NCBI GenBank assembly: GCA_040752415.1
Contig: JBFMGU010000017.1
Span: 1-64,000 of the forward strand
Length of the DNA stretch: 64,000 bases
Direction: 5' to 3'
Source: Myxococcota bacterium
GTDB lineage: Bacteria > Myxococcota > JACRCW01
Below are positions 16,123 to 36,551 of this stretch, in pieces (the stretch's first letter is position 1; each line of letters starts with the position of its first letter). Under the pieces are notes generated by a model. The model was given only the letters and a program-made list of their open reading frames with translations, had not been told where the DNA came from and made no database searches. The translations under genes were made by a program, and so were the position numbers.

Positions 16123-16131
16123 GGGAGACCC

Positions 16132-20155: not shown

Positions 20156-20520
20156 GGCACGCGGGAAGGTGAGGCCGCGTAAGCGGCGGTTGCATGGTGT
20201 GCGGGAAGGCGTGACGACGAAAATTCGGGCCACGCGCTTATGTGTCTTACCGACTGGGCCGCTCAGATGCTGCCTTCGTGTCCCGCTGGGTTGGGGCTGT
20301 TGCGTGATGGTGAGGTCGTCCGTGGCCATGGCGGCTGCGTGCGCGCCGACGCAACGAACCCTGCGCCGACTCTCAGATGAGGTTCGTCGTGATGTCGTTC
20401 CGGGTGCGTGCGCATCCTACTTTCCTGCAGATGAGCCCAAACGGTAGTGGCCCTTTGGCGTCAACGTGGCCTAAAAGGGTGTGCTCAAGACTTCGCTTAG
20501 GTTTCGGGAAGCGGGGACAT

Positions 20521-23500
20521 ATGCGCACGTTGCAGCAGAAGATCACGGTTGTGCACGCAGTTTTCCTTACGGCGATGTTGGCCTCGGAAAGCGTACATGC
20601 GGGCGCGCGGAGCGCCCAGCGTGGCGTCCCAGGCCACCCCATCGCGGTGTTTCACAAACCGCCCACGCAGCCGGATGCGTTCATGACCCACGGGCGAGGC
20701 TATGCGCTGTGGCTGGTTCCCGAAGGCATGGTGCTGGCACTCAGAAAGCCGCAGGGCGCCCCGTCGGCGTTGCACATCGATCCTGAACGTCCGTGTCTGG
20801 CTGGAGATGTCGAGGAACAGGCGGAGACGTCCATCATCCAGATCCGCTTTCCCGGGGCCGCGTCCCGGCCTCGTCTCCGCGCCGAGGATCCGCGCACGAC
20901 AAAGGTGAATTATCTCAGAGGTGACGATTCAACGCGATGGATACGCGGCCTGACGACCCATGGCCGCGTGAGGCACGAAGGACTGTACCGGGGGGTGGAC
21001 CTCGTTTCGTACGGAAGCGCGGGTGAGCTGGAGTTCGATTTCGAGGTCAAGCCAGGTGCATCCCCGCGCGCCATCGCGATGGAGTTCCGGGGCGCCGACC
21101 GCTTGGAGCTTGATCCCATGGGCTCGTTGCTGATCCACACCCCGGCGGGCGCGGTGACCCTCTTGCCGCCCCAGGCCTATCAGAAGGGGCCATCTGGGAA
21201 CGAGGAGGTCAAGGCCAGCTTCGAGGTCATCTCGCGCACACAGGCCCGCTTCGTCCTGGGAAAGTATGATCGAGCGCGGACGCTCATCATTGATCCGGTT
21301 CTCCTGTATTCAACGTGGTTGGGAGGCGACGGCGACGAGCGCGGACTGGGTGTCGCGGTGGGCTCGGATGGCTCTGCGTACGTTGTGGGGGATACCTGGT
21401 CCTGGAACTTTCCTGTGCGCAACCCTCTGCAAGCCCAGATCCGCGGGGACCTCGACGGATTTGTCACCAAGCTCAGCCCAACGGGAGACTCCATTGAGTA
21501 CTCCACGTTCCTCGGTGGCGGGGGCTATGACGCGTTCGAGCGGGCGCTGGTGACCTCCAGCGGTCAGCTCTATACGATTGGCTCGACCAGGTCCCACGAT
21601 TTCCCCGTCGTCAACGCGTTCCAGTCGAGTTACGGCGGCGGGCCCTATGATGGAATGATTGTCAGGCTCGACTCCACGGGCACCAATCTGGAAATGTCCA
21701 CGTACTTTGGTGGGGATGGCGACGATGCTGTTCACGCCATTGCTCTGGGGCCTGCAGGTGAGATCCACCTTGTTGGCCACGTCACGTCCGGCAACTTTCC
21801 CCTGAAAAGGCCCATGTTCGGCTACACCGGCGGATTCGATGGCTGGGTGGCGCGAATGACGGCGGATGGACGCAGCCTGGATTTCTCGACGTATTACGCG
21901 AGGGGGGCTGACATCTACGGGTTGGCGCTGGATGTCTTCGGCAACATCTGGGTTGCTGGCCATGTGGCCTCGAACCTTCCGCCCGTCAACGCGCTGGACG
22001 GGCAGCTTGGCGGCTCCGCAGATGCGTTCGTAGCCAAGATCAACGCCGCGGGTGATGCGGTGCACTTCGCCACGTACCTTGGTGGCAGTGGGCTGGATGG
22101 CGCTCGCGCGGTGGAGCTGGACGCGCAGGGCAACGCGTATGTTGCGGGCTGGACCACCTCAGCGGATTTCCCGCTGGTGAGCCCCGTGCAGGACCACCTC
22201 GGTGGGACGACAACGCACGATTACTACCGGGGAGACGCATTTCTCACGAAGGTCGACGCGAACGGAACCGCGTTGATGTTCTCGACGTACCTGGGCTCCG
22301 AGAAGGATGACAGTGCGTGGGATCTCGCCGTGACCGGGGACGGTGTGGCTTATGCCATCGGAAGCGTCGGGGGACCTTCCTTTCCGATTGTTGACGGCTA
22401 TCAGCCCGTGTTTGGTGGCCCGGTCGATGATCGCCTGTTCTGGGGAGATGGCTTCCTTGCGGTGGTGGATACGACGAGCGCAAGCCTGATCTATTCGACC
22501 TTCCTTGGTGGTTCGAGCGCCGATTACGCCTACGGTGTGGCCCTGGGGCCATTCGGCGATGTCTATGTCAGTGGCATCACCACGTCGTCTGACTTCCCTG
22601 TGACCCAACCCGTGGTGCCAAGGCGGGGAGGGCGTGATGCGTTTCTCATTCGCGTGCTGGTTGAAGGGGCGCAAGTCCAGGACCTTCATGTCGAGCCGCG
22701 GCTGGCAGGCAGGATCGTTGGGGCTGAACACTGCGTCGTGGCGACCGTCACGGACAACAATGGTGACCCGGTGGGCGGCGTCGCGGTCGCGTTCAACGTC
22801 TCTCCCACGCACGCCGCCCAAGAAATGATCACCACGGATGAAACGGGTGTTGCCACGTTTTGTTACGCCGGTGAGCGCGAAGGAACGGATGACGTGACGG
22901 TGGTGGCGGATACACTCCAGGACGTCGTCACCGTGGTGTGGACCGCACCGCAGGCCTGCCCCGCGAACACCCAACCCGGTCACGGAAGCGCGATTCGCTA
23001 CGTGGGCTCCACGACGGCAGCATGCGACGAGGTTGCGGAGCTGACGGCACAGCTTGTGGGACAGCAAGGTGAGCCGCTGGCGGGGAGGACGCTGGTGTTC
23101 ACGGCGGAAGAACAGGAGTTGCAGGCCGTGACGGATGACGCCGGCGTCGCGCGAGTGCGCGCGATTCTACCGAACCCCGGCGCGTTGACAGTGACCTTCG
23201 CGGGAGACGCAGCGTACGACCCGTCGTCGCTGCTCCAGGTACTGCAGCCTGACGCTTTGCCGACAACCCTGTTGGTGACTGGGCCGCGTCACCTCACCGC
23301 CGGGGCGGCGGGGGTCGTCTCGGCGGTGTTGCAGGACGGCGTGACCGGGGCGCCACTCGCCGGTGAAACGGTAACGTTCGCTGCAGGTGCTGACGTCGTA
23401 GAAGCGGTGACGGACGCCACCGGTCTGGCCACCGCGACCGTCACGGCAGGCGCTGATGCCACCTCCATCAATGCGTACTTCGCCGGATCCCCGTGCCACG

Positions 23501-26500
23501 CAACGTCGTCGGCGAGCATGGCCGTCCGGGTTCTCACCGGGGACACGTTTGTGATCTGGGGAGGCAACAGCACGGGCCTTCACCTGGGTGACCGTGTCAA
23601 TTTCTGGGGCGCTCAATGGGCCAAGCAGGTGCAGGAAGGCGACTACGATGCGCACGCAGAGTTCAAAGGCTACGCCGAGGTGAATGGTGACGTGCGCCTC
23701 TGCCAGGTCCAATCCAACCGGCACAGCACACCCCCGCTGAACCCGGGGTGTTGGACCTCAAAGCCCGGAAACAGCCATCCGCCCGTGATGACGGCCCCAG
23801 CGCGTGTGCAGGCCCTTGTGGCCACCAGCATCGACAAGCAGTCAGGCGTCGTGTTTGGAAACATCGCAGGTGTGGTGGTCTTGGAGCTTGATGCGGCACC
23901 GGCGTACGGCCCGGATCCGGGACACCCGGGTTATGGAACCATCGTTGAAGTCGTGATGGCTGGTGAGGGAGTGGGACTGCCTCTCCCGAGCGAGCTCACG
24001 CCGCGACTGTCCGTCACGCAACTCCAGGATGTGACGACGAATGCAGGGACGCCGCTCACCGTGACCTTGCACGTTGTCAACACCGGGAATGTGGCGGTGG
24101 TGGATGGCACGGCAACGCTCGCCGCACCCTGGGGAGAGCCAGCGCTCCAAACCGCAGCGCTGGGAGCACTGCCCGTGGGCGCCGCCACGGATGTGACTTT
24201 CGTGGTGACGTCGCCCTCCCTGCGACGCAGGCCCGACGAGTCGGCGGCAGCGTACGAAGCCCGTCTCGCCGCCGAGGATGGGCGGCGGTTGGCAACGGTG
24301 AGCTCCATTGCAGCCCGAACCGCGGATGGCAGGAGTCATGAGATCTTGGGGGCTGGGAGCAGCACCACGTTGCGTGTTCCGCGGCTCAGTCTGGCGCTTC
24401 ATGCGCCCGCTTGCGCCGGTGCTGGGGCCGCGGTGTTCTACGACGTCACCGTTGCCAACGTGGGCAGCGCGGGCGCCTCTCAGCCTCGGGTTCTCGTCCG
24501 ATTTGCGGATGGCTCCGAGGAACTGCTCATTCTTCCCGACTTGCCTCAAGGCGCGGCGGTGACGCGCACCGTGTCATGGCGACCGCCCAGCCCTCCCGCC
24601 CGTGCCCTGAATGAGTCGGAGGAAGACTATCTGGCGCGGCTGTCGTCGTTGAACGAAGCGCCGCTGGTGACCACCGCATCCGCGGTGTGGACGGGCGAGG
24701 CCAACGGGCAATACGGCGCAGTGGAGGGGGCCGCGACGTCACTGAATGGCATCCCCGTGCTGGAGCTGTTGGCCGCGGTAACACCGGGCGGCCATCCCGG
24801 AGAGGACGTGAATCTCGACGTACTTCTGCTCAATCGCGGTCATGGCAACGCCTTCCTTGTTGGCGTCCAGGTCACGATGCATGATGGAACCATTGAGCAT
24901 GCCAGCGTGGATTCCATTGGGGCCGGGGAGTCTGAGCACGTTGTGTTCTCGTGGCCGCTACCGCCCGTTGCAGTCCGCGGCTCCTCCGAAAGCGACGCGG
25001 CGTATCGCCAACGACTGCTCGATGCTGCGGGGCGCGTGGTGATGAACGCCGTGGTGCAATGGCACGATGCGGCCGGTGGGGCGTTGGGACCGTTGCAGCG
25101 GGAGGCCAGCACCGTCCCCCGTGTCCCCATTGTGGATGTCCAAATCCAAGGACCGCCGGAGGTCACGGCGAGCCAGAGCATCCGGTATCAGGTCACGATT
25201 GCGAACGTGGGAACCGGCGCGGCCTCCGACGTCCGGTTGACGGTGTCTCTTCCGGATGGTTCCGTCCGGAGTCTTCCTCCCATGGTGCTGGGGGTTGGTG
25301 GAGAACGCGACCTGGAGGTGCCGGGGATTGTGCCCGCCTCTGGGCTGGGGCCAACGCTTACGGCGCGTGGCGAGGCTCGGTGGAGCGATGTAGCCCAGGC
25401 CTATGGACCGCTCGGAAACAACGCCGTTGCAACGGCGCTGAACTCCGCCCCGCGCGTGGAAGCTGGAGCCAATGTCAGTCTGGTGCTCCCGCAGCGCACG
25501 GTGGCGTTGCAGGGGATCGCTGTTGATGACGGATTGCCTGGCGGCGCGGTGAGCGCGACCTGGTCCCTCGTGGACGGACCCGGCGCCGTTTCCTTCTCCA
25601 ACGTTAACGCGTTGCAGACGTCGGTAACGCTCACTGCCACCGGCCTCTACACGCTGCGCCTGACCGCCACGGACACCGTGCTTTCCGCCAGGGACGACGT
25701 CGTCATTGAGCTGGGAGAAGCGCAGAACCAGGCGCCCGTGGTCAACGCGGGGCCGGACTTGGCGATGGTCTGGCCGGCAGATTCAGTTGAGCTGCTGGGA
25801 GCCGTCACGGATGATGAACTTCCTCCGACGGGCGCGCTGCAGACAATCTGGACCGTGGTGAGCGCGCCAGGGGATGTCACGTTCGGTGATTCGCGCTCGT
25901 CAACCACCACCGCGACGTTGACCGCGCGTGGGACGTATGAGCTGGAGCTCGTCGCCACCGACGGGGTTCTCTTCGCGACGGACCGCGTGGTGGTAACCTA
26001 CACGTTGCCGGCAAATGATCCGCCCGTGGTGAGCGCGGGTAACGATGTCACGCTGACGTGGCCGGACAACGTGGTCGCGCTGGATGGATATGTCGCCGAT
26101 GACGGGCGGCCCGTGGGCGGTGCGCTCGTGGCGCAGTGGTCGCAGGTGAGCGGTCCAAGGTCGGTGGTCTTTGCGGACACGGGCGCTGTCGACACCACCG
26201 TGGAGTTCCGTGCTGCGGGCACCTACGTGCTGCGGCTGGCCGCGTACGACGGACAGGATGCCGCGTCTGACAGCGTCCAGGTCAACATCATGGGAACCGG
26301 AGGCGGTGGGCCGGCCCCGGTTGTGGGTGCGCTGAGTCTGCAGGACGGGACCATCATCACGCAGCCCACGACGGTGGCGGCCTCCATCCAAAGCGACGCG
26401 CTGGAGCGGTGGGACCTTGAGTACCGGGAGCTCGGTGCAGAGACGTGGAACCTGTTTGGCAGCGGCACCACGCAGTCAGTGGGTGGAACGTTGGATCCTA

Positions 26501-29500
26501 CGCTGCTGCTCAATGGTCTGATCCAGGTGCGGCTCGTGGCCACGGACACGGCGGGCCAGGTGACGGAGGGAGAAGCCATCTTCGTCGAGGTGGATGGCAA
26601 CATGAAGGTGGGCAACTTCACCCTCGCCTTCACCGACCTCTCCGTTCCGGTGATGGGCATCCCCATCGAGGTCACGCGCACCTACGACTCGCGCGACAAG
26701 CGGCAGGGTGACTTCGGCGTGGGGTGGCAGCTGGGCATCAAGAACGTGCGGCTGCAGGAGAGCGGCATTGTGGGAAGCCGCTGGCGCATGGACGTCATCA
26801 ACGGGTTCTTCGACACGTACTGCGTGAGGCCGGTGCGCCAGAAGCGCGTGACGGTGACGCTCCCCGACGGGGACGTGCACGAGTTCGTGCCGCGGTTGGA
26901 GCCGCAGTGCCAGAGCATCATCCCGCAGCAGGAAGCCACCGTGGTGTTTGTGCCGCAGCCAGGGACGACGAGCACGCTGACGCCGCTCAACGACTACGTG
27001 CTGGTGGCGGGGAATACGAGCGGAGATTTCCCGCTTATCGACGCCGATACGCTCGATGTGATGGATCCGGAGCTGTACATCCTCAAGCTGCGGGACGGAC
27101 GCCGGCTGATGGTCAACGACGACGGGAAGCTCCTGTCCATTCGCGACCTCAACGGCAACACGTTGGACATCAACGACGACGGGATGGTGCACTCGAGCGG
27201 GCAGAGCATCTCGTTCGAGCGGGACGCGCTGGGTCGCATCACGAGCATCAACGACCCGCTGGGGAAGTCGCTGACGTACCGCTACGACGCGCGCGGCGAC
27301 CTCGCCAGTGTCACCGACCGCGAGGGCCAGGAGACAACGTTCGCGTACAACGCGACGCACGGCCTCCTGGACATCTTCGACCCGCGGGGCGTGCGAGCGG
27401 TGCGCAATGAGTACGACGCCGACGGGCGCCTGCTCTCCCATACCGACGCGTCGGGCAATGTGATTGCGTACGTGCATGACCTGGCCGCGCAGGTGGAGAC
27501 GGTGACGGACCGCCTCGGCAACGTGACCACGCACGAATACGACTCGCGGGGCAACGTGCTGCGCACCGTCGATGCCGAGGGCGGGGTGACGACGCGGAGC
27601 TACGACGGCTTCGACAACAAGCTGTCGGAGACGGACCCGCTGGGGAACACCACGTTCTACACGTACAACGACGAGCGGGACGTCACGAGCGTCACCGACG
27701 CGCTGGGCCACGTCACGCAGAGCACGTACAACACCTTCGGCTCGGTGCTCACGCACACGGATGCGCGCGGGAAGGTGTCGCGGAACTTCTATGACGTGAA
27801 GGGGAACCTGGAGACCGCCCGCGACCCGACCGGCGCGGCCACCGACTACCAGTACACCCCGTATGGCCAACCGTGGTGGATGCGGGACGCGCTGGGACGC
27901 ATCACGCTGTACGCCTATGACCCGAACGGAAACCTGTCGTCGGAGACCGACCCCCTGGGCCACGTCACGAGCTACACCTACGACGCCAATGGGAATCGCG
28001 CGAGCCAGACCACGACACGGACGACGCCCGACGGCGTGGAGAAGCTGATCACGGGGTATGTGTATGACAGCGAGAACCGGCTGGTCGAGACGGTTCACCC
28101 TGACGGGACGACGACGAGCACGCGGTACAACGCGATTGGCAAGCAGGCGTCGACGACGGATGGGCTGGGGCGGGAGACGCGCTACGTGTACGACGACCAC
28201 GGCCGGCTCACGGAGACGCAGTTCCCCGACGGGACGACGGAGGGGGTGACCTACGACGCCGAGGGTCGGCGGCTGACGTCGACGGACCGCGGCGGGCGGG
28301 TCACGAGATACGAGTACGACCGGGTGGGTCGGCTGACGAAGATGATCCACCCGGACCGGATGTTCCGCATGACGACGTATGACCTGGCGGGACGGGTCGT
28401 GGCGGAGACGGATGAGAACGGGAACACGGTGACGTTTGTCTACGACGACGCAGGACGTCGCACGGTGGTACGGAACGCGCTGGGTCACTCGACGCGGAGC
28501 GATTACGACGAGAACGGGAACCTGACGTCGGTGACCGACGCGAACGAGCACACCACGACGTTCGCGTATGACGACGTGGGCCGGCGCGTGAAGACGACGG
28601 CGCCCAATGGGACGTACCGCACGACGGGATACGACGCGCTGGGTCGGCGCATCAGCGAGACGGACGAGCTGGGGAGGACGACGCAGTATGGGTACGACGA
28701 GCTGGGTCGGTTGACGTCGGTGACGGACGCGCTGGTTCAGGTGACGAGCTACGGCTACGACGAGCTGGGGAACATGGTTTCCCAGACGGACGCCAACGGG
28801 CACACCACGCGCTTTGAGCACGACAAACTGGGACGAAGGGTCAAGCGCACGCTGCCCATGGGCCAGTCTGAGACGATGTCCTACGACGCCGTTGGCAACA
28901 TGACGTCGAGGACGGACTTCAGCGGGCACACCACGACGTACGCGTATGACGAGCTCAACCGGTTGCTCTCGAAGACACCGGACCCGGCGCTCAACGAGCC
29001 GACGGTGTCGTTCACGTACTTCTCGACGGGACAGCGTCAGTCGATGACGGATGCGTGGGGCGCGACGACGTACTCCTACGATGACCGGGACCGGTTGCTG
29101 ACGAAGGCGACGCCGGCAGGAACGCTCACGTACACCTACGATGATGTTGGGAACGTGAGGTCGATCCGGTCGAGCAACGCCGGTGGCACCGACGTGCAGT
29201 ACGAGTGGGACGCCGCCAACCAGCTTGCTGCGGTGGTTGACTCGAACACGGGCACGACGACGTACGCATATGACCCCGTCGGGAACGTGGCGGGGATGAC
29301 GCTTGCGAACGGGGTTGTGTCCCAGAGCGTCTACGACGAGCAGAACCGGCTTACGGACCTCTCGTACATGCGCGGGACGATGGAGATTGCGCGGTACACG
29401 CACACCATCGCGCCGACGGGACACCGCACGGGCGTGGCGGAGACCAGTGGGCGCCAGGTCGCGTACACGTTTGATGAGCTGTATCGATTGACGTCGGAAA

Positions 29501-30870
29501 TGGTGACCAACGACCCCAACGGCCTCAACGGAACTGTCACCTATGCATACGACGCTGTTGGCAACCGGCTCACGCGGACCTCCACGCTGCCAGGAGTGAC
29601 GGCGCAGACGTTTTTCTACAACGAGAACGATCAACTCTCCGACCACGTCTACAACACCAACGGTGCCACCGTTGATGATGGCAGTCAGACCTATGCGTAC
29701 AACTTTGAAGGTCACCTGGTTGATGTGGATGGTGGTCGTGTCACTTTCCAATATGACGGGGATGGAAACCGCGTCGCGCAGACCATTCACGGCACAGCTG
29801 CGACAACCACGTTGTTCTTGGTCGATACGCTCAACCCGACCCGTTACAGCCAGGTCGTGGAGGAAGTGGAGAGCGGTCTTATTGCCCGCCGGTACACGTT
29901 CGGCGTTGGTGTTCTGGCACAACAAGTCGCTGGAGCTACTCACTTGATGGGGGTCGATGGAAGAACGTCGGTGCGTCTTCTGATGGACGCTGTTGGCACG
30001 ATTACGGACGAGTGGACGTATGACGCCTTTGGTGCGACGACTTTCCGCGAAGGAACAACACCCACGCCTTACCAGTACCTCGGCGAGAGGCATTATTCCG
30101 AGAGTGGATTGGTCCATCTGAGGGCGAGAGACGTGGCACTTGGAGTGGGTCGATTCCAAAGCATGGATCCCCATCCAGGGCTTCTTGACCGGCCATCTTC
30201 GTTGCACAGGTATGTCTACGGTGCGAATGACCCGGTGAACCTTGTGGACCGGTCGGGCCTGCTCACCACGCCCGAGGTGCAAACAACCACGGTTGTTCAG
30301 ACCTCTCTTCAGGCGATGCCGAAAGTCATCATCTCACCGACGATTCTCCCTTTCGCCGGTGCGATTTTGGTTGCAGGCGCGGCTGCTGTCGGCGGTGCGA
30401 TTGCCTACCAAGTAGCCGTTGCGTTCAAGTATAAGAACAACGATGCGGCGTGCGGCCGGCTGGGGGCCAAGAAGCTCTATCGGGCAATGACCGAGGCGCC
30501 CGATGGGTACCCGGAGACTTCACCGCCGAGTTCTAGCACGCTGGCCGCGCGGATTAATGTGGACGTTCATCCGTTCCCAGGCCGGTTTGGACCCGACACC
30601 GTTGCGCCGGCCGACGAAGGGATGTCGGTGGCGCCAGATTACATCGGGAATCTGTTGGGCCGCCTTCCGCGATCTCTTGGGGGGCCGAACAACAAGCCGG
30701 CATTTTGCATCAACGTTGATCAATTGCCCGAAGATCTCCGGTACGTTCCTGATCCAACCAAGCCCGGCGTTCATGGGTTTGTGGGACCATCGCGGGAGAT
30801 GTCCTTCGACGACTACCAAGGTCATCTCGCGAGCACCCGGCTCTCTTGGCTCAAGGTTGCAGACAAGTAA
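20521..30870 (+). CDS. Rhs/YD-repeat polymorphic toxin with N-terminal SBBP beta-propeller, Ig/PKD-like domains and a C-terminal Tse2-like toxin domain
   Basis: Signal peptide MRTLQQK...VHAG; SBBP repeats (YSTfLGG..D...a.avd..G..YvaG.T.S.dFP); PKD-like 'P.V.AG.D' repeats; 'RTYDSRDKRQGDFGVGW'; many YD repeats; core end 'YVYGANDPVNLVDRSG'; variable C-terminal tip. Confidence 0.9.
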   Translation: MRTLQQKITVVHAVFLTAMLASESVHAGARSAQRGVPGHPIAVFHKPPTQPDAFMTHGRGYALWLVPEGMVLALRKPQGAPSALHIDPERPCLAGDVEEQAETSIIQIRFPGAASRPRLRAEDPRTTKVNYLRGDDSTRWIRGLTTHGRVRHEGLYRGVDLVSYGSAGELEFDFEVKPGASPRAIAMEFRGADRLELDPMGSLLIHTPAGAVTLLPPQAYQKGPSGNEEVKASFEVISRTQARFVLGKYDRARTLIIDPVLLYSTWLGGDGDERGLGVAVGSDGSAYVVGDTWSWNFPVRNPLQAQIRGDLDGFVTKLSPTGDSIEYSTFLGGGGYDAFERALVTSSGQLYTIGSTRSHDFPVVNAFQSSYGGGPYDGMIVRLDSTGTNLEMSTYFGGDGDDAVHAIALGPAGEIHLVGHVTSGNFPLKRPMFGYTGGFDGWVARMTADGRSLDFSTYYARGADIYGLALDVFGNIWVAGHVASNLPPVNALDGQLGGSADAFVAKINAAGDAVHFATYLGGSGLDGARAVELDAQGNAYVAGWTTSADFPLVSPVQDHLGGTTTHDYYRGDAFLTKVDANGTALMFSTYLGSEKDDSAWDLAVTGDGVAYAIGSVGGPSFPIVDGYQPVFGGPVDDRLFWGDGFLAVVDTTSASLIYSTFLGGSSADYAYGVALGPFGDVYVSGITTSSDFPVTQPVVPRRGGRDAFLIRVLVEGAQVQDLHVEPRLAGRIVGAEHCVVATVTDNNGDPVGGVAVAFNVSPTHAAQEMITTDETGVATFCYAGEREGTDDVTVVADTLQDVVTVVWTAPQACPANTQPGHGSAIRYVGSTTAACDEVAELTAQLVGQQGEPLAGRTLVFTAEEQELQAVTDDAGVARVRAILPNPGALTVTFAGDAAYDPSSLLQVLQPDALPTTLLVTGPRHLTAGAAGVVSAVLQDGVTGAPLAGETVTFAAGADVVEAVTDATGLATATVTAGADATSINAYFAGSPCHATSSASMAVRVLTGDTFVIWGGNSTGLHLGDRVNFWGAQWAKQVQEGDYDAHAEFKGYAEVNGDVRLCQVQSNRHSTPPLNPGCWTSKPGNSHPPVMTAPARVQALVATSIDKQSGVVFGNIAGVVVLELDAAPAYGPDPGHPGYGTIVEVVMAGEGVGLPLPSELTPRLSVTQLQDVTTNAGTPLTVTLHVVNTGNVAVVDGTATLAAPWGEPALQTAALGALPVGAATDVTFVVTSPSLRRRPDESAAAYEARLAAEDGRRLATVSSIAARTADGRSHEILGAGSSTTLRVPRLSLALHAPACAGAGAAVFYDVTVANVGSAGASQPRVLVRFADGSEELLILPDLPQGAAVTRTVSWRPPSPPARALNESEEDYLARLSSLNEAPLVTTASAVWTGEANGQYGAVEGAATSLNGIPVLELLAAVTPGGHPGEDVNLDVLLLNRGHGNAFLVGVQVTMHDGTIEHASVDSIGAGESEHVVFSWPLPPVAVRGSSESDAAYRQRLLDAAGRVVMNAVVQWHDAAGGALGPLQREASTVPRVPIVDVQIQGPPEVTASQSIRYQVTIANVGTGAASDVRLTVSLPDGSVRSLPPMVLGVGGERDLEVPGIVPASGLGPTLTARGEARWSDVAQAYGPLGNNAVATALNSAPRVEAGANVSLVLPQRTVALQGIAVDDGLPGGAVSATWSLVDGPGAVSFSNVNALQTSVTLTATGLYTLRLTATDTVLSARDDVVIELGEAQNQAPVVNAGPDLAMVWPADSVELLGAVTDDELPPTGALQTIWTVVSAPGDVTFGDSRSSTTTATLTARGTYELELVATDGVLFATDRVVVTYTLPANDPPVVSAGNDVTLTWPDNVVALDGYVADDGRPVGGALVAQWSQVSGPRSVVFADTGAVDTTVEFRAAGTYVLRLAAYDGQDAASDSVQVNIMGTGGGGPAPVVGALSLQDGTIITQPTTVAASIQSDALERWDLEYRELGAETWNLFGSGTTQSVGGTLDPTLLLNGLIQVRLVATDTAGQVTEGEAIFVEVDGNMKVGNFTLAFTDLSVPVMGIPIEVTRTYDSRDKRQGDFGVGWQLGIKNVRLQESGIVGSRWRMDVINGFFDTYCVRPVRQKRVTVTLPDGDVHEFVPRLEPQCQSIIPQQEATVVFVPQPGTTSTLTPLNDYVLVAGNTSGDFPLIDADTLDVMDPELYILKLRDGRRLMVNDDGKLLSIRDLNGNTLDINDDGMVHSSGQSISFERDALGRITSINDPLGKSLTYRYDARGDLASVTDREGQETTFAYNATHGLLDIFDPRGVRAVRNEYDADGRLLSHTDASGNVIAYVHDLAAQVETVTDRLGNVTTHEYDSRGNVLRTVDAEGGVTTRSYDGFDNKLSETDPLGNTTFYTYNDERDVTSVTDALGHVTQSTYNTFGSVLTHTDARGKVSRNFYDVKGNLETARDPTGAATDYQYTPYGQPWWMRDALGRITLYAYDPNGNLSSETDPLGHVTSYTYDANGNRASQTTTRTTPDGVEKLITGYVYDSENRLVETVHPDGTTTSTRYNAIGKQASTTDGLGRETRYVYDDHGRLTETQFPDGTTEGVTYDAEGRRLTSTDRGGRVTRYEYDRVGRLTKMIHPDRMFRMTTYDLAGRVVAETDENGNTVTFVYDDAGRRTVVRNALGHSTRSDYDENGNLTSVTDANEHTTTFAYDDVGRRVKTTAPNGTYRTTGYDALGRRISETDELGRTTQYGYDELGRLTSVTDALVQVTSYGYDELGNMVSQTDANGHTTRFEHDKLGRRVKRTLPMGQSETMSYDAVGNMTSRTDFSGHTTTYAYDELNRLLSKTPDPALNEPTVSFTYFSTGQRQSMTDAWGATTYSYDDRDRLLTKATPAGTLTYTYDDVGNVRSIRSSNAGGTDVQYEWDAANQLAAVVDSNTGTTTYAYDPVGNVAGMTLANGVVSQSVYDEQNRLTDLSYMRGTMEIARYTHTIAPTGHRTGVAETSGRQVAYTFDELYRLTSEMVTNDPNGLNGTVTYAYDAVGNRLTRTSTLPGVTAQTFFYNENDQLSDHVYNTNGATVDDGSQTYAYNFEGHLVDVDGGRVTFQYDGDGNRVAQTIHGTAATTTLFLVDTLNPTRYSQVVEEVESGLIARRYTFGVGVLAQQVAGATHLMGVDGRTSVRLLMDAVGTITDEWTYDAFGATTFREGTTPTPYQYLGERHYSESGLVHLRARDVALGVGRFQSMDPHPGLLDRPSSLHRYVYGANDPVNLVDRSGLLTTPEVQTTTVVQTSLQAMPKVIISPTILPFAGAILVAGAAAVGGAIAYQVAVAFKYKNNDAACGRLGAKKLYRAMTEAPDGYPETSPPSSSTLAARINVDVHPFPGRFGPDTVAPADEGMSVAPDYIGNLLGRLPRSLGGPNNKPAFCINVDQLPEDLRYVPDPTKPGVHGFVGPSREMSFDDYQGHLASTRLSWLKVADK

Positions 30871-30878
30871 GGTAAGGG

Positions 30879-31376
30879 ATGCGTCGAATGGCGATCATTT
30901 ACGAACTCTCCATAGAGTGCCCAGAGCGACCTGACGCTGACGTTCTTGCAGGAGCGTTTGCAGGTATGCGAATCCTCGTCGATGGTGGGTTGGAGTGTGT
31001 TTGCACAGCCCGAACTCAGAAGGACCGGGACGGGTGCTGGTGGACGTTGCTTCATAGTGATCAGCTGCCGCGAAGCGGGCTCCATACCGAAAGCGACGCA
31101 CGACAGGCGTCTCAATTCGGTGCTCGGCTCTACGACGAACTTCGCAAGCACGCCGGATATCGTTATGCGCGTGCAGGAATCGAATCGGAATTCTTTGTGA
31201 CCTATCGAGAGCTGCTACTCCCAGAGAATGCAATTGAGCTGTCAAGCGCGGGGCTCGTTTTGCATGAACAGGTATGGGCAAAGTTGAATCGCCCCACCTC
31301 TTTTGTTTCGTTCTCTCGACATTACGTTTGGATTCCATATCAAGGGGAGAGATGCACACCAGTGGTGGACTCGTAG
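30879..31376 (+). CDS. Putative immunity protein for the Rhs C-terminal toxin
   Basis: 165-aa ORF (alternative start 30888) 8 bp after the Rhs stop, same strand, same reduced GC as the toxin tip. Confidence 0.7.
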   Translation: MRRMAIIYELSIECPERPDADVLAGAFAGMRILVDGGLECVCTARTQKDRDGCWWTLLHSDQLPRSGLHTESDARQASQFGARLYDELRKHAGYRYARAGIESEFFVTYRELLLPENAIELSSAGLVLHEQVWAKLNRPTSFVSFSRHYVWIPYQGERCTPVVDS

Positions 31377-31414
31377 CGTCACGTCGTCGTAGGCGGTATA
31401 GCCTGTGGACCACG

Positions 31415-31612
31415 TGAGCCGGGTCCGGCCGCGGAGGCGCAGGGGACGGGAGTGGACGGGCGGCAGCGGGCGGCGTTTGCTGGTGCAGCTATCGGTGCTT
31501 TGAGAATGGCGTGCTTGTCTTGCGGTAGCGCAGGCGTCCTGCAGGTGGTGAAGGAGAGGTCTGGGTGGTGCCGGTTGAGCCGGGCCGGCCGCAGAGGCGG
31601 AGGGGCCGGGAG
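31415..31612 (+). repeat. Imperfect ~37-bp direct repeat (31415-31452 and 31576-31612)
   Basis: tgagccgggtccggccgcggaggcgcaggggacgggag vs tgagccgggccggccgcagaggcggaggggccgggag. Confidence 0.75.
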
Positions 31613-31636
31613 CGACTGAGTGGTAGCCCGTCGGGA

Positions 31637-31664
31637 AGTTGACAGAGCGCACCTTACGCGACGC
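31637..31664 (-). other. dif-like XerC/XerD site 1
   Basis: Minus strand reads GCGTCGCGTAA-GGTGCG-CTCTGTCAACT (11-6-11). Confidence 0.55.
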
Positions 31665-31730
31665 GGAAGCCGGTACGGCCATGCTGATGAGTGACGACGT
31701 GGAGATGGCTGCATGGCCTGTGCCGGACCC

Positions 31731-31758
31731 GTGTTACGTAAGGCGCGTTCTGTCACGC
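31731..31758 (+). other. dif-like XerC/XerD site 2 (outer end of the D arm degenerate or interrupted)
   Basis: GTGTTACGTAA-GGCGCG-TTCTGTCACGC; inverted partner of site 1. Confidence 0.5.
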
Positions 31759-31830
31759 GACGACGTGACGCGGGCCATGCTCACCGCTTTGTCGACGTCA
31801 AATGCATGGCCCGTGGCACGGAGGAGCATA

Positions 31831-32763
31831 CTTTCCCGACGGGCGTCAGCGGGCGAGGCCCCGGAGCCGTAGCGGCCGGCCCGGCGCGAGTGGGTGAGCG
31901 GGCGTGGGTTTTCCGTCGACAGGAGCCGAGGCCTGCGAGGACCGCATGGCCCGAGCAGGCCGCAGGCGACGCAGGTGGTGAACCAGATGGGCAGCGACGC
32001 CGTGCCGGCGAGACGCCGCATGGCGACGAGAAGGCGCAGGCGAGCGGAGTGGGGAACCGGGGCAGACGAAACGGCGGAGCGTCGCTGGTGCGGTAGAGTG
32101 GGAGGCACGGCCATGCCTGAGCTCACGGAGTTCCTGTCCGTCGACACCCACTTGGGGCTGAGACTGCTTTGCTGGCGGCTTCGACTTCGACTTGGCACTT
32201 CCGCATTTCAATACCGGCACGACGACAAGGGGGAAGTGGCGGCGGCAGCGGTTGAACGCGCGCTCCTCACGATCGTGCGGCCGAAGCCGGTCCAGTCGTC
32301 ACAAGGATGGGCCGGATGGCTCCCGCAGTTCGTCCGGATAGGAGTGATGATCGCGTTACCTTTGGAGCATGTGCATCCCGTCGATGCGCACTCTGCGACG
32401 AGAGAGCTTGTTCCCAAGGTTGCGCAAGCTTTGGCTGACGTAACGTACGGCGCGGTGGAACACGAGTTCACAGCGGTCGATCGGGTGGCAGTGGTGCTTC
32501 GCTCCACGTCGTACTTTCCTCGGACGCCGCTCGAGCGCTTGCAGGACCTGCTTGGCATGCGAACTCGCGGGTGACTGTCGGCCTTTGCGTCTCCATGCTC
32601 GCGCGTCGGCCGCGCCTACTCTCTCGACGGTGGCGACGCAGTACGGCGCGTCCTCCGCCGCTGCGCGCGGAGCCGCACCCACTCGACCAGTTCCTCGTTC
32701 ACCCTCTTGCGCCGGGCCGGCCGCTGCGCTCCGGGGCCTTGCCCACTGGCGCCCGTCGGAAAG
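31831..32763. repeat. ~70-bp GC-rich inverted repeats (31831-31900 / 32696-32763) enclosing one ORF
   Basis: ctttcccgacgggcgtcagcgggcgaggccccggagccgtagcggccggcccggcgcgagtgggtgagcg vs the reverse complement ctttccgacgggcgccagtgggcaaggccccggagcgcagcggccggcccggcgcaagagggtgaacg; about 60 of 70 positions match by manual alignment. Confidence 0.85.
32113..32574 (+). CDS. Orphan hypothetical protein (153 aa), cassette-like
   Basis: GGAGG RBS 7 nt before ATG 32113; lower GC than the flanks; no family recognised. Confidence 0.6.
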   Translation: MPELTEFLSVDTHLGLRLLCWRLRLRLGTSAFQYRHDDKGEVAAAAVERALLTIVRPKPVQSSQGWAGWLPQFVRIGVMIALPLEHVHPVDAHSATRELVPKVAQALADVTYGAVEHEFTAVDRVAVVLRSTSYFPRTPLERLQDLLGMRTRG

Positions 32764-32791
32764 GTTTACAGAATCAGATCTTATCCAACAT
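32763..32791 (-). other. dif-like XerC/XerD site 3 (7-bp spacer)
   Basis: Minus strand reads ATGTTGGATAA-GATCTGA-TTCTGTAAACC. Confidence 0.65.
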
Positions 32792-32864
32792 GGCCGGTCC
32801 GTCACGTGGCATGCATCGATTTGACGACGTGACGCACTGGCATGCCACGCGCCGGCATGCGGCC

Positions 32865-32893
32865 ACGTCGGATAAGACTGAGTTATGTAAACC
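32865..32893 (+). other. dif-like XerC/XerD site 4 (7-bp spacer)
   Basis: ACGTCGGATAA-GACTGAG-TTATGTAAACC. The right arm matches the B. subtilis dif arm TTATGTAAACT at 10/11. Confidence 0.72.
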
Positions 32894-32938
32894 CGCATGC
32901 CCCGTTTCGAGCATGCCGGTGCCTCACACACCAGCCCG

Positions 32939-33508
32939 CTACTCATCCGGAACCCGCGCACCCATGGTCACCGTGAATCCCTCCTCGTGGCTCCCAGTAG
33001 ACCTGCTTCCCATCGCGCGCTCACCGGCTCCCCGCCAGTCCGCATGGTGCGTCCGCGCCGTCCCCATGAGTTCCCGCTGAACGGGTCCCGCCGCGGGCCC
33101 TCCCGCCCCACTCGCCCCAGGTGCGCGCGCAATCCACGCAACCAACGACGCAAACCCCGCCGTCGTCATCCCGAGAAGCAGGGCGGACCAGACCACGGTC
33201 GCCAACCACCTGACACGACGCATGACGCGCTCAACACCGCGCGGGCAGTCCCGCGTGATCACCGTTCCATCCCTGCGCCGGTACAGCCGCACGCACACGC
33301 GGCCCTCCGCGCGCTGGAGCAGCGCTTCCGCTTCTTCCGTCGTCATGGCGGAGAGGTTGTAGACGTTGAGGTTGCACAGGTCGCAATGGCGAACCCGCTC
33401 GTTCCCTCGCATCCGCGACCAATCCGCCTCACACGGCGTCGCCACGCGAATCTGCTGCAGCCTCCGTGGCCTCACGGGAAGCGGACTTGCCGGCGTGGCT
33501 GGCGTCAT
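32939..33508 (-). CDS. Hypothetical membrane protein with N-terminal Cys-cluster domain
   Basis: 'PCEADWSRMRGNERVRHCDLCNLNVYNLSAMT...GRVCVRLYRRRDGTVITRDCP', one TM helix, repeated 'MG' motifs in the tail. Confidence 0.75.
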   Translation of the reverse strand: MTPATPASPLPVRPRRLQQIRVATPCEADWSRMRGNERVRHCDLCNLNVYNLSAMTTEEAEALLQRAEGRVCVRLYRRRDGTVITRDCPRGVERVMRRVRWLATVVWSALLLGMTTAGFASLVAWIARAPGASGAGGPAAGPVQRELMGTARTHHADWRGAGERAMGSRSTGSHEEGFTVTMGARVPDE

Positions 33509-33615
33509 CGTGCGTAGAAACGCGCGGTCGCCGCGGAATCCTCCCGTCCTTCGAAACAGGTGTCCCGCTTGAGCACCCCCGCGCCTTTGTGTGCGATTGT
33601 TCCACCGGCTACGCC

Positions 33616-34170
33616 ATGATCCTCTTCGATCTCACCTACGAGCTCACCCTCGGCGTGGTCGCCGCGGCTCTCGCATCACGTCGTCCCCATGCCCGACAGA
33701 CCATCTTCACCGACGGGCTCCTCGTCTCCTCCCTCATCTACATCCCCACGTGCATGGCCGCCTTTGCCGCGTGGCCCGCGTGGCAGACCATGTACTTCGT
33801 CGACGTCACCAACCCCGCGCACGCCCTCTGGGCCGCGGCAACGAGCGGCTCCGGTCTTGCCGCCTGCTACGTGCTGGGCTTCCTGTTGGCCCGCCGGCTC
33901 GTCAGCACGCGCGGAATGCGCGCCCTGTACGCGTTCCTCGCCGTCCTCTGGCCCTGTATCCTGAGCTTCATCTTCGTCCTCACCTGGGAACGCGCCTTCA
34001 CGGTGACGACGTACGCCGACTTCCATTCTTCCCGGACATTCGAAATCCGCTGGGGCACCCCCGACAGCCTGCTCGGTGGTCCCCTGACGACGTTCCTCGT
34101 CGTTGGCGGCGTCATCAACGCGCTTGCCGTGGCCATCCTCGTGCTTCGCACGCGGCCTCGTGCCCCCTGA
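33616..34170 (+). CDS. Hypothetical integral membrane protein (~5 TM)
   Basis: Hydrophobic segments, 'WPAWQTMY' motif, good GC3 bias. Confidence 0.7.
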   Translation: MILFDLTYELTLGVVAAALASRRPHARQTIFTDGLLVSSLIYIPTCMAAFAAWPAWQTMYFVDVTNPAHALWAAATSGSGLAACYVLGFLLARRLVSTRGMRALYAFLAVLWPCILSFIFVLTWERAFTVTTYADFHSSRTFEIRWGTPDSLLGGPLTTFLVVGGVINALAVAILVLRTRPRAP

Positions 34171-34178
34171 GCAGCGGG

Positions 34179-36551
34179 CTACGGCACCACCGTCTCGTCC
34201 CACTCGTCGACGGGCATCCACACCGCGTACCCGCGCGGCGGCGCGGAAACGTACACGCGGCCATCCGCATACACATCGTGCAGCGTGGTGATTCCGCCAC
34301 GCACGTCCTGGACCACGCGATTGCTCCAGCTGGTGAGCGCGGGATCCGGAGCGTGGTCCACCCAGAGGCCGCGCGTCTCCGTGTCGTGGTTGTTGATGAC
34401 CAGGATGGCGCCGGTCTTCCCCACGGCAGCGGGCCCCTCCCGACGAGCCACGAACACGTGTCGCGTGTCCTCGGGCGGATACGGATTCCCCTCCGCGCTG
34501 AGCACGACCATGGGCCCGGCGAGATGCTCCGCGCGAATCGCCATCAACAGCTGCAGCTCGTCGACGAGACTCGCGGGCGCCTGCACGGTGTAGCTGCCGT
34601 CATGGACGTCGCGCTGCTGCACGCCGTGGAGGTGCGGGTAGTAGATGAACGGCCGCTCCTCGGCAAACAGCGTGAACGCGTAGGCCATGTGCCAGTCGCG
34701 CCAGAGCCAGTAGCCGCGCTCCTTGCCCGTGTCGTGGTTCTCCACGAAGGACACCACCCGCTCCGAGGGAAGTGCGTCCACCGGGTCCCGCACCATTCCC
34801 GCCGAGGCCAGCGACGCCATGTCGAAATCCGCGCCGTTCCGGTTGGCCATGTCCGAGAGCGCGAACTTCAGCGGGAAGTCGAACACCGCCACGTTGCTGT
34901 CGCCAGTTCCGGCCGCATCCACCGCACCCACCCACTCGCGAATGCGCTGCTTCTTCCGCGCGAAGTACTCCGCCACCGCGAAGCGAGGTGCCCCACGCGT
35001 CGTCACCGGCATGGCATCCAACCAACCACGCACGTAGTCCTGCGGAACACCCAGGACCCAATCCAGGCGGTAACCATCGAATCCCACGACGTCGGTGAGC
35101 CAGGCGCCCCACGCACGGAAGCGCTCGCCCACGTCAGGGTGGAACGTGTTGAAGTCATTTCCGAACAGTCGCCAGCGCGGCCGCACTTCCTCGTCGCCGG
35201 GCCACTCCAGGTGGTCCTCGGCGCTGGCGGGATGGAAGTGTTCATGACTCCACTCGAAGTTCGCCTCGCCAGGACCGGTGTGCTCCACGGGGCGGATGCC
35301 GGTACGCGTGTGCACCTGCATGTCTGCCGGCACCCCGTCGTGGCTCACCGCAACGATGCGGTACCCACGCTGTCCATCCCCATCCTCCACCACGCCACCG
35401 ACGAGACGCCGCGACGACAACCGCACCTCCAGTCGACCCGGACTGGTCACTTCCACGGAGAACGCGTCCTCGTCCTGCTGCGTCTCGATGAATCCAAGTC
35501 CCGGCGTGTCACCGCCCAGCATCACGGGGTCGCTGGACGTCTCATCGGCCCAGGTGGCCACGCCGGTTCCGTCGGTGATTCCTCCCCACACGTCGACGCG
35601 ATAGGTCCGCTCCTCCACCGCCGAGTCCCAGGGCAGACGGTAGCCACCCACTTGGAACGTCCACGCGCCGGGCGCGGCATCGGGAACCACCCAGACCACG
35701 TCGCTGACGGGATAGAGCGGGTACTCCACACCATCCACGGTGGCGCCGTTCTCGATGTAGGCCCGCACGGCGGGATTGTCCGCCAGCTCCGCGTCGGACG
35801 CGTACACGTGGTTCAGCACGATGTCGACGACGACGTCGATGCCGCGCGCATGCATCGCGGCCACCATGTCCAGGAGCTCCTGGCGACTCCCGAAGCGCGT
35901 CTCGACGGTGCCCTTCTGCTGGTAGTTGCCCAGGTCGTACAGGTCGAAGGTGCCGTACCCCATGTCATAGATGCCGAAGTTGCCCTTGCTGGGCGGCGGC
36001 ACCCACAGTGAGGTGATTCCCATGCTGGAAAGCGCACCGGCTTCCCCGGCGAGATGGTCCCACCACGTGCCGTCCTTGCTCAGCGCGTTGACGGGGACGT
36101 CCCAGTAGAAGGCCTGCAGCATAACGTCGACGGTGCCGGCGCAGGTGCGCGTGTCGCAGAAGGAGGGCAGGGCGGGACGGCCAGCGTCGTCGACGGGCGT
36201 GACGGCGGCATCGGAGGTCGCGGCGTCGGGCCGGTTGGCATCGGGAACGTGTGCGTCGGGGAGCGCGGCATCCGGTCCCGCGGCGTCAACGGCGCTGGCG
36301 TCGGCGGGAAGCGTGGCGTCGGGGGCGTTCGCGTCGTGCGTCGGGGTGGCGTCCCCCACCGCGGCGTCGGACGGGTGCGCAGCGTCGACAGCACCTCCGT
36401 CGAGGTTCGCGCTCGCGTCCAGGGGGACCACGCCGGCATCACCGCGCGCGGAAACACCCGCGTCGCGGGAAGACGGTGGTGACTCCGTCGGCGTGGACGT
36501 GGTGCACGACGCCACAGCGAGCACCAAAAGCCAGGAGTTCCGCGGACCCAT
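34179..36551 (-). CDS. GH13 alpha-amylase lipoprotein with an inserted beta-domain
   Basis: Lipobox 'AVASC', Asp/Ala linker, 'VMLQAFYWD', 'DIVLNH', 'DGYRLD', 'VAEYF', 'FVENHD'. Confidence 0.9.
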   Translation of the reverse strand: MGPRNSWLLVLAVASCTTSTPTESPPSSRDAGVSARGDAGVVPLDASANLDGGAVDAAHPSDAAVGDATPTHDANAPDATLPADASAVDAAGPDAALPDAHVPDANRPDAATSDAAVTPVDDAGRPALPSFCDTRTCAGTVDVMLQAFYWDVPVNALSKDGTWWDHLAGEAGALSSMGITSLWVPPPSKGNFGIYDMGYGTFDLYDLGNYQQKGTVETRFGSRQELLDMVAAMHARGIDVVVDIVLNHVYASDAELADNPAVRAYIENGATVDGVEYPLYPVSDVVWVVPDAAPGAWTFQVGGYRLPWDSAVEERTYRVDVWGGITDGTGVATWADETSSDPVMLGGDTPGLGFIETQQDEDAFSVEVTSPGRLEVRLSSRRLVGGVVEDGDGQRGYRIVAVSHDGVPADMQVHTRTGIRPVEHTGPGEANFEWSHEHFHPASAEDHLEWPGDEEVRPRWRLFGNDFNTFHPDVGERFRAWGAWLTDVVGFDGYRLDWVLGVPQDYVRGWLDAMPVTTRGAPRFAVAEYFARKKQRIREWVGAVDAAGTGDSNVAVFDFPLKFALSDMANRNGADFDMASLASAGMVRDPVDALPSERVVSFVENHDTGKERGYWLWRDWHMAYAFTLFAEERPFIYYPHLHGVQQRDVHDGSYTVQAPASLVDELQLLMAIRAEHLAGPMVVLSAEGNPYPPEDTRHVFVARREGPAAVGKTGAILVINNHDTETRGLWVDHAPDPALTSWSNRVVQDVRGGITTLHDVYADGRVYVSAPPRGYAVWMPVDEWDETVVP

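Follow-up and report, generated by a model that had tools for sequence, protein, structure and literature searches.

Paired inverted dif-like sites behind Rhs toxin-immunity genes in a Myxococcota bacterium: possible fold-dependent substrates of Xer recombinases

Introduction

The gain of toxin tips and orphan immunity genes by polymorphic toxin loci, those of Rhs proteins included, is usually credited to homologous recombination, and site-specific routes are merely hinted at by the recombinases found near immunity arrays. The locus described here raises the question of whether the host recombinases XerC and XerD could offer such a route. It lies in a stretch of 64,000 nucleotides (the window) from a Myxococcota bacterium (GCA_040752415.1, contig JBFMGU010000017.1, positions 1 to 64,000 of the forward strand), which is part of contig C79 of the host assembly, called G000 below (11.0 Mb, 68.9% GC, 520 contigs). 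Behind an Rhs toxin gene and its small neighbour, two pairs of inverted sites resembling the chromosomal dif can each fold into a hairpin (hp1 and hp2). The likeness to dif, a fold kept between two genera, the position of the hairpins behind four different genes and two unrelated Rhs cores, and the presence of xerD and a xerC-like gene in the host all bear on this question. It is possible, at a rough probability of 0.45, that hp1 and hp2 are Xer-type, fold-dependent recombination sites at the 3' edge of Rhs toxin-immunity cassettes.

Two inverted pairs of sites and their folding

The two hairpins are placed as follows.

31637..31758, no strand assigned: hairpin hp1, with dif-like sites at 31637-31664 (minus) and 31731-31758 (plus)
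32763..32893, no strand assigned: hairpin hp2, with dif-like sites at 32763-32791 (minus) and 32865-32893 (plus)

Direct reading agreed exactly with an initial annotation made from the sequence of the window, in which these four sites, their orientations and their spacing had been proposed. Across 31637-32893 the arms follow one another as D-C, C-D, D-C and C-D, an alternating order that bounds a gene module, and the two sites of a pair are separated by 66 bp in hp1 and 73 bp in hp2. The linkers are self-complementary, as had also been claimed (ggccatgc/gcatggcc in hp1 and cgtggcatgc/gcatgccacg in hp2), and the shared loop motif TGACGACGTG is present in both loops, that of hp2 containing TTTGACGACGTGAC. 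A repeat search found the arm pairs as inverted repeats (45 nt at 71% in hp1, 34 nt at 76% in hp2), and the motif TTMTGTMAAC occurs twice in the window against 0.03 occurrences expected.

The claim that each pair can fold held when single-stranded DNA (ssDNA) folding was compared with 200 shuffles, none of which was as good (z between -5.1 and -8.9: -5.1 for hp1, -5.9 for the plus strand and -8.9 for the minus strand of hp2). In hp2 and in a further copy on contig C62 (described below) the minus strand folds better (-44.5 and -45.8 against -37.1 and -35.1 kcal/mol) because mismatches turn into G-T pairs, and in hp1 the plus strand is slightly better folded; no firm conclusion about which strand folds was drawn from these energies. 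No promoter-like or terminator-like site was called at the hairpins, and no Rfam family matched positions 30500-34500 at E values up to 1.

Candidate host dif, Xer genes and likeness of the arms

The regular expression ATAA-N6/7-TT[AC]TGT matched four sites over the whole of G000: the two sites of hp2, C216:1953-1980 and C216:3462-3489. The first of the C216 sites, ACGTCCGATAA-TATACG-TTATGTAAACT on the minus strand, is single-copy and intergenic and represents the candidate host chromosomal dif. Of the 41 phylum genomes, 27 have about one copy each of its core (GATAA-N6-TTATGTAAAC, one mismatch allowed), the backwards pattern being rare, and in G001, the only genome of the same family, AGGTCCGATAA-TCAACG-TTATGTTAACT stands at the corresponding place with the same flanking genes. 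Additionally, GC skew switches sign at the C216:1953 site, which is weak evidence on a contig of 12.7 kb. The second C216 match (locus L001, 3462-3489), 1.5 kb from the candidate dif, is a 28-bp palindrome made of two XerD-type arms, AGTTGACATAA-TCCCGA-TTCTGTCAACT, and the hp1 outer arm is similar to it; the interval between palindrome and dif holds an open reading frame (ORF) of unknown family and an RNase_H_2-superfamily gene, the latter syntenic with G001.

The arms of the candidate dif were compared with every position of G000 on both strands, at spacers of 5-8, with the reversed genome as control. After dif itself (22/22), the best matches were the right site of hp2 (20/22) and its left site (17/22), and all others scored 16 or less, 16 being also the maximum of the reversed genome. 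As the second and third best dif-arm matches, above both background and control, the hp2 arms are, by this comparison of sequences, not chance look-alikes of dif. The sites of hp1 (15/22 and 11/22) and of the C62 copy (15/22 and 14/22) would not stand out alone, and their arms can be called dif-like solely through homology to hp2. The resemblance to the host dif on which the initial annotation turned is therefore good for hp2 and weak for hp1 taken by itself.

A scan with a position weight matrix (PWM) trained on the hairpin and dif arms, and thus circular for them, gave nothing new above the reversed-genome maximum of 24.8 bits, other than a palindrome with a 5-nt centre, CACATAA-TGACG-TTATGTG, at C157:51686-51712, the best match outside the hairpins and dif (25.7 bits, near that maximum). 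A tandem repeat may account for three CGATAA-N6-TGATTTCAAG sites at C497:37617-38441, spaced by about 400 bp, whose score against the dif arms was 15-16/22. Regarding the recombinases on which the initial annotation relied, both have a counterpart in the host: a XerD gene on C506 (359.7 bits, above the XerD cut-off) and a second Xer-like gene, XerC-like, on C21 (308 bits, scored with the same XerD model).

The Rhs locus and its repeated elements

The hairpins belong to a wider set of repeated elements that extends from the Rhs gene to the end of hp2.

20377..30870, plus strand: Rhs polymorphic toxin gene, 3497 aa (Pfam RHS_repeat, E 1.2e-124)
30019-30261: end of the Rhs core (Rhs_assc_core, TIGR03696 match), followed by a lower-GC C-terminal toxin tip
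30879..31376, plus strand: small ORF of 165 aa directly 3' of the toxin gene, without Pfam family, with a low GC content at third codon positions (GC3, 0.53)
31422..31467, plus strand: degenerate A-box copy (direct repeat, 76% identity with 31582-31627)
31579..31637, plus strand: A box, a GC-rich conserved element 5' of hp1 (inverted repeat with 31857-31885; alignments)
31759..31826, no strand assigned: arm-less core hairpin (inverted repeat of 17 nt at 88%; weak nhmmer match)
31830..31900, minus strand: inverted A-box copy (inverted repeats of 38 nt at 87% and 33 nt at 88%)
32113..32574, plus strand: ORF of 153 aa between hp1 and hp2 (GC3 0.73 for the longer frame)
32585..32695, plus strand: U region, conserved, from the ORF stop to the A box, common to the C62 copy (alignment)
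32696..32765, plus strand: A box 5' of hp2 (repeats, BLAST, alignment)

The neighbour of the hairpins is a true Rhs protein, as had been annotated, and GC falls to 0.55-0.60 from about position 29400 on, at the toxin tip side of the gene. Judged by position alone, the 165-aa ORF is a candidate immunity gene. The first plus-strand A box and the minus-strand A box bracket hp1 together with the arm-less hairpin, which is similar to the linkers of hp1 and hp2 and carries the loop motif inverted. The 153-aa ORF is in turn flanked by 70-nt inverted repeats, namely the A boxes at 31830-31900 (minus) and 32696-32765 (plus), with 87-88% identity (87% over 70 nt by BLAST). Its coding status is uncertain because it lacks a homologue, its only match among 255 candidates from 5.8 billion proteins being itself, and no Pfam family was found for it. 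The 13-mer GACGACGTGACGC has 13 copies in G000, three of which are local: one sits in the loop of hp2, one follows hp1 directly, and one, in inverted orientation, lies where the immunity-like ORF ends. The loop motif was also considered as a genome-wide repeat and rejected as such, 36 of the 50 copies of GACGACGTGAC lying in long open frames in which they code for Asp-Asp-Val.

In agreement with the initial annotation, the 36 window ORFs scanned yielded neither a recombinase nor a transposase, and C79 had no match when the whole genome was scanned for tyrosine recombinases and IS91 transposases; an integron integrase is encoded elsewhere, on C385. The surroundings of the hairpins consist of chromosomal housekeeping genes and not of a plasmid context. 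Synteny of the window Rhs locus with G001-G003 was not found, as a search there did not find the neighbouring amylase-like protein.

Further copies and conservation of the fold

A third copy in G000 was found by BLAST and nhmmer at C62:1031-1161, with about 85% identity to the hp2 module over some 180 nt. Alignment of hp2 with it delimits a conserved module of about 320 nt that comprises the U region, the A box and the hairpin. The contig begins inside the end of a low-GC ORF, which is followed by an ORF of 129 aa with LRV/HEAT repeats, a pair whose usual look suggests a toxin tip and its immunity gene, and the hairpin starts 296 nt after the 129-aa ORF. It is flanked by an 8-bp direct repeat, GCGCAAAG, at 1022-1029 and 1164-1171 of C62 (locus L002), a feature that the other three copies do not show, and the outer half of both its XerD-type arms is gone through a small deletion. 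Remnants of IS91-family elements occupy C62:1646-2900, from about 485 nt to the right of the hairpin.

A covariance model built from the three G000 hairpins recovered exactly those three in G000 (hp1 at 110.7 bits, hp2 at 149.3 bits) and, over 150 other genomes of the phylum, returned one full-length match, in G001 (E 1.2e-7). This copy, at L130:1501-1636, lies about 200 nt after a 141-aa ORF, which is preceded by a short toxin tip and the end of an Rhs core (DPVNRADATGL; TIGR03696 match). As at hp1, an arm-less core hairpin stands beside it (L130:1441-1500, ahead of the copy), and the copy is enclosed by inverted A-box ends. Its first site reads ACGTCTGATAA-CGTCCAGGCA-TTATGTGAACA with a 10-nt centre and its second ACATCTGATAA-CTGGCA-TTATGATGAAC with a 6-nt centre, and its loop, CATGCATTTGACGACGTGAC, is nearly identical to that of hp2. 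The Rhs cores of the window and of G001 are about 28% identical, and the small ORFs upstream of the two hairpins are unrelated. Each of the four hairpins follows a same-strand ORF at a distance of 190-300 nt, the four upstream genes are different and bear no relation to one another, and the loop motif TGACG(A/T)CGT keeps one orientation throughout. The expectation that other such pairs would be found behind different genes is thus borne out by the C62 and G001 copies.

The central region of Xer sites is 6 bp long, or 6-8 bp in plasmid sites. The hairpins have centres of 6 and 6 nt (hp1), 7 and 7 nt, shifted (hp2 and C62), and 10 and 6 nt (G001). No further Xer-like site was found in C62:1-6000, in G001:C124:1-6000 or between 19 and 38 kb in the window.

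Compensatory changes preserve the fold across two genera. When the three copies of G000 are compared, changes on both sides maintain 7 of the 42 predicted pairs, for example TTATC/GATAA in hp2 against TTACG/CGTAA in hp1, or GGCATGC/GCATGCC against GCCATGC/GCATGGC, and in the G001 copy the linker stem has a differing sequence, GGCCGTGACC/GGTCACGGCC, with pairing retained. In the alignment of all four sequences 153 of 168 cells pair; the 24 compensatory pairs counted there are inflated, the alignment having been fitted to the model with the outer arms shifted. The parts that are conserved in sequence are the inner TT[A/C]TG of the XerD-type arms, the inner GATAA of the XerC-type arms (CGTAA in hp1) and the apical loop.

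Comparison with known systems

The closest parallel in architecture is attP(+) of CTXphi of Vibrio cholerae, which is described as two inverted dif-like sites about 90 bp apart that form a forked hairpin of 150 nt in the single-stranded genome, with central regions of 12 nt (attP1) and 7 nt (attP2), and in which host XerC exchanges one pair of strands (PMC3089051). The hairpins studied here likewise consist of inverted dif-like pairs tens of bp apart in an ssDNA hairpin of 120-150 nt with mismatched or unequal centres (12 and 7 in CTXphi; 10 and 6 in G001; 7 and 7 in hp2). The outer bases of the XerD-type arms are degenerate in both, and neither encodes its own recombinase (PMC3089051 for CTXphi). 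Unlike CTXphi, the loci described here show no genes for replication, coat or morphogenesis in the ORFs scanned (36 of the window, and those of C62 and G001), no single hybrid site marks another element end, the centres differ from the host dif, and the hairpins are tied to Rhs toxin-immunity genes. The location also differs from CTX-type integration, with the hairpins on C79 and C62 and dif on C216 in a syntenic context of core genes.

Integron attC sites provide the second parallel, which the initial annotation had favoured. In both, a single gene is followed at its 3' end by an imperfect hairpin of about 60-140 nt, and the hairpin is conserved more in structure than in sequence; moreover, one gene is bracketed by two sites as in integron cassettes, and recognition, if any, would be of the folded single strand. 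The R boxes of attC read RYYYAAC ... GTTRRRY, with the crossover at G/TT. In contrast, the outer boxes of the hairpins (GTTTAC.../...GTAAAC) have a polarity opposite to this consensus, the inner AAC/GTC is present in hp2 and not kept in hp1, C62 or G001, the arms copy dif, and an adjacent integrase, attI and promoter are absent. The integron integrase gene of G000 is at 979-1932 of the 4.2-kb contig C385 (439.7 bits against a cut-off of 265), and its flanks on that contig share nothing with the hairpins. C385 itself starts with a GC-rich hairpin, and a cassette array, if there is any, is unassembled.

In the pdif modules of Acinetobacter plasmids, alternating Xer-type sites bound gene modules that include toxin-antitoxin genes, no dedicated recombinase being reported (PMC6449649, PMC13141974). 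The alternating Xer-type sites that bound a module in the window, again without a dedicated recombinase, are comparable, whereas pdif sites are single sites of 28 bp with 6-bp centres on plasmids and those described here are close inverted pairs with a structured linker and loop, chromosomal, and with centres of 6-10 nt. Regarding immunity genes, the rAID-1 orphan-immunity arrays of Bacteroidales are reported to combine a XerD-family recombinase gene, integron-like repeats and many cassettes (10.1101/471110), and polyimmunity loci to adjoin XerC/D genes (PMC3482391). In such loci, as in ours, interbacterial toxin-immunity genes are linked with repeats in the intergenic DNA and with recombination of the Xer family. 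The present locus differs from rAID-1 in that C79 has no local recombinase, no more than one ORF is bracketed, and the sites are similar to the host dif. A search confined to one library of papers returned none joining Rhs, dif-like hairpins and Xer.

A possible mechanism and the points against it

The hairpins would form a small family, each member comprising two inverted sites (XerC-type arm, centre, XerD-type arm) either derived from the host dif or converged on it, and each would be the right-hand end of the module of about 320 nt placed 3' of an Rhs toxin-immunity pair or an orphan ORF. If one strand were exposed, as lagging-strand template, as incoming ssDNA or by cruciform extrusion, the arms could anneal, and the stem would then offer a dif-like duplex with a mismatched centre, as in CTXphi attP(+) or a folded attC. 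Host XerC and XerD could bind this duplex and swap one pair of strands with another such site, whereby the DNA between hairpins, carrying toxin-tip and immunity genes or orphan genes, would be excised, captured or swapped among Rhs loci. Xer binding, folding in vivo, strand exchange and cassette mobility are what we infer, and the parts of this reading differ in strength. That the hairpin sites are, or once were, true Xer substrates is probable. That the hairpins move cassettes today is rather doubtful, at about one chance in three. No stronger is the suggestion of an integrase-free chromosomal cassette system in which XerC and XerD would recombine folded sites with each other and so shuffle toxin-tip and immunity modules and orphan genes between Rhs loci and between cells.

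Several observations speak against recombination at these sites. No recombination product, polymorphism or empty site was seen, and the family is rare, with four copies in two genomes. A hairpin stands at one of the six Rhs core ends detected in G000 and at one of six in G001, the core belonging to the C62 copy being off the contig. The core/tip junctions of the Rhs genes and the rest of the flanks examined gave no partner site comparable to attI, and the sole doubly bracketed cassette is the ORF that lacks a homologue. Exchange with dif itself looks unfavourable because the central regions of the hairpins (GAC.., GAT.., GG..) differ from the TATACG of dif. Furthermore, both XerC-type arms of hp1 carry CGTAA instead of GATAA and the XerD-type arms of C62 have lost their outer half, so some copies (hp1, C62) may be decaying. 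Finally, G000 has other tyrosine recombinases. The initial proposal that the hairpins act like attC sites on which host XerCD captures or shuffles single genes is partly supported: the dif likeness, the fold, the existence of further copies and the host Xer genes are in favour, the missing partner site and the bracketed ORF are not, and no capture, excision or shuffling was seen.

If the proposed role of the hairpins in Rhs cassettes were true, a folded site that mimics dif would give Rhs cassette exchange a concrete and testable mechanism. Xer recombination of single strands, until now known from vibrio phages, would extend to a distant phylum and to gene cassettes that belong to no phage, and nature would provide an intermediate between Xer sites and integron attC. 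Should the hairpins be inert relics, they would still record a past Xer-exploiting element that carried toxin-immunity genes.

Alternative explanations

The last possibility is the best of the alternatives, although it is less probable than Xer-type sites at Rhs cassettes and we give it about one chance in five. The hairpins would be what decay has left of the attachment regions of an element that exploited Xer (a mobile element integrated by way of Xer, or IMEX, a filamentous-phage-like element or a satellite) and that had toxin-immunity genes on board or beside it, and they would be inactive now. The departures of hp1 and C62 from dif at conserved positions, including the deleted outer XerD-arm bases of C62, would fit such decay, as would the small number of copies and genomes and the junk-like surroundings, where IS91 remnants lie about 485 nt away from the hairpin on C62 and where A box and core hairpin recur as nested, incomplete copies. 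However, the two genera have fold, loop motif and orientation in common despite an identity of only about 28% between their Rhs cores, hp2 retains 20 of the 22 dif arm positions, and remnants of phage or replication genes were not found nearby among the ORFs scanned.

The substrate of another tyrosine recombinase is a less likely explanation. The sites would then be cassette sites resembling attC or those of rAID, used by the C385 integron integrase, by the recombinase on C420 that accompanies an IS91 transposase, or by a XerD-like enzyme since lost. Such enzymes do exist in G000, where the integron integrase is present, where C420 (a 2.6-kb repeat contig) pairs a tyrosine recombinase with an IS91-family Y2 transposase, and where a XerD-like C-terminal fragment lies directly behind another Rhs toxin-immunity pair at C30:16141-16413; the rAID-1 arrays, with their reported XerD-family recombinase and integron-like repeats, provide a precedent (10.1101/471110). 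Nevertheless, attC boxes matching the consensus are not conserved in the four hairpins, the intI flanks are unrelated, no such recombinase gene lies within the window or the flanks examined, and it is dif itself, and no other site, that the arms match. The C30 locus (14905-16413) is a second Rhs locus in its own right, consisting of a core end, a tip, a small ORF and then the fragment of 90 aa, which is 50% identical to XerD and has C at the position of the catalytic tyrosine. Nine Y2_Tnp matches were counted in G000.

Slightly less likely again is a structural or regulatory element, that is, a terminator, an element that stabilises the 3' end of the transcript from the toxin and immunity genes, or a cruciform whose breakage would provoke homologous exchange of toxin tips, in which the likeness to dif would be incidental or would reflect Xer binding only. 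All four copies keep one position and orientation with respect to the upstream ORF, GC-rich arm-less hairpins lie alongside (31759-31826; L130:1441-1500), and the stem covariation fits an RNA or single-strand structure. A match to 20 of 22 dif arm positions that is unique in the genome is nonetheless unexpected for a terminator, no T-run follows the hairpins, neither a terminator-like site nor an Rfam family was called, and in hp2 and C62 the better fold is that of the strand antisense to the toxin genes.

The idea of a miniature inverted-repeat transposable element or insertion-sequence end whose terminal inverted repeats are dif-like by chance is very improbable and was rejected: an inverted-repeat element of about 130 nt, the 8-bp direct repeat at C62 and the abundance in G000 of IS91-family elements, which have single-stranded intermediates, could suggest it, but there are merely three copies in 11 Mb, hp1, hp2 and the G001 copy lack a flanking duplication, the left flank (U region and A box) is conserved with the hairpin so that the unit exceeds the palindrome, and the repeats common to the IS91 copies end about 485 nt from the C62 hairpin.

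Wider searches and minor observations

When the hp2 module was compared by BLAST with 400 further genomes of the phylum, no match covered the hairpin, and 78 genomes gave short matches to the A box alone (best E 1.6e-4). Weak matches of the covariance model in three genomes were examined and discarded: that in G064, a partial one, is an array of TGACGTCAC repeats, that in G090, also partial, an arm-less core-like hairpin, and that in G003 a plain hairpin after a small gene. The G090 hairpin, which resembles the hp2 linker, is at 2098-2158 of locus L137 (G090:C279); two tyrosine-recombinase genes in tandem, with a third ORF, lie about 900 bp away (3141-6180), in an arrangement that resembles a recombinase trio.

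Neither 50,697 phage records nor 72,556 plasmid records contained a match to the hairpin. The loop pattern was met at 75 loci in metagenome contigs, most of them in coding DNA and none with complementary flanks or dif-like arms. Around 30 Rhs core ends of other genomes (90 kb in total, about 1.5 kb of flank each) no inverted dif-like pair was detected, with a regular expression that also misses hp1. A degenerate inverted-pair pattern, run against a collection of genome contigs, matched eight loci, none from the host phylum; some are genuine dif-like hairpins in other phyla and the rest probably chance matches in AT-rich genomes. In unrelated metagenome-assembled genomes (MAGs), loci L040 (Nitrospirae MAG), L043 (Clostridia MAG) and L037 (Fimbriimonadaceae MAG) have inverted GATAA-N7-TTATGT pairs with self-complementary linkers, at about 4001-4133 or 2558-2660, and these may be CTX-type attachment hairpins in other phyla.

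Elsewhere in the window, a giant gene of 3396 aa on the minus strand (2037-12227) encodes many CarboxypepD_reg-like repeats and adjoins a gene for a CheR-type methyltransferase.

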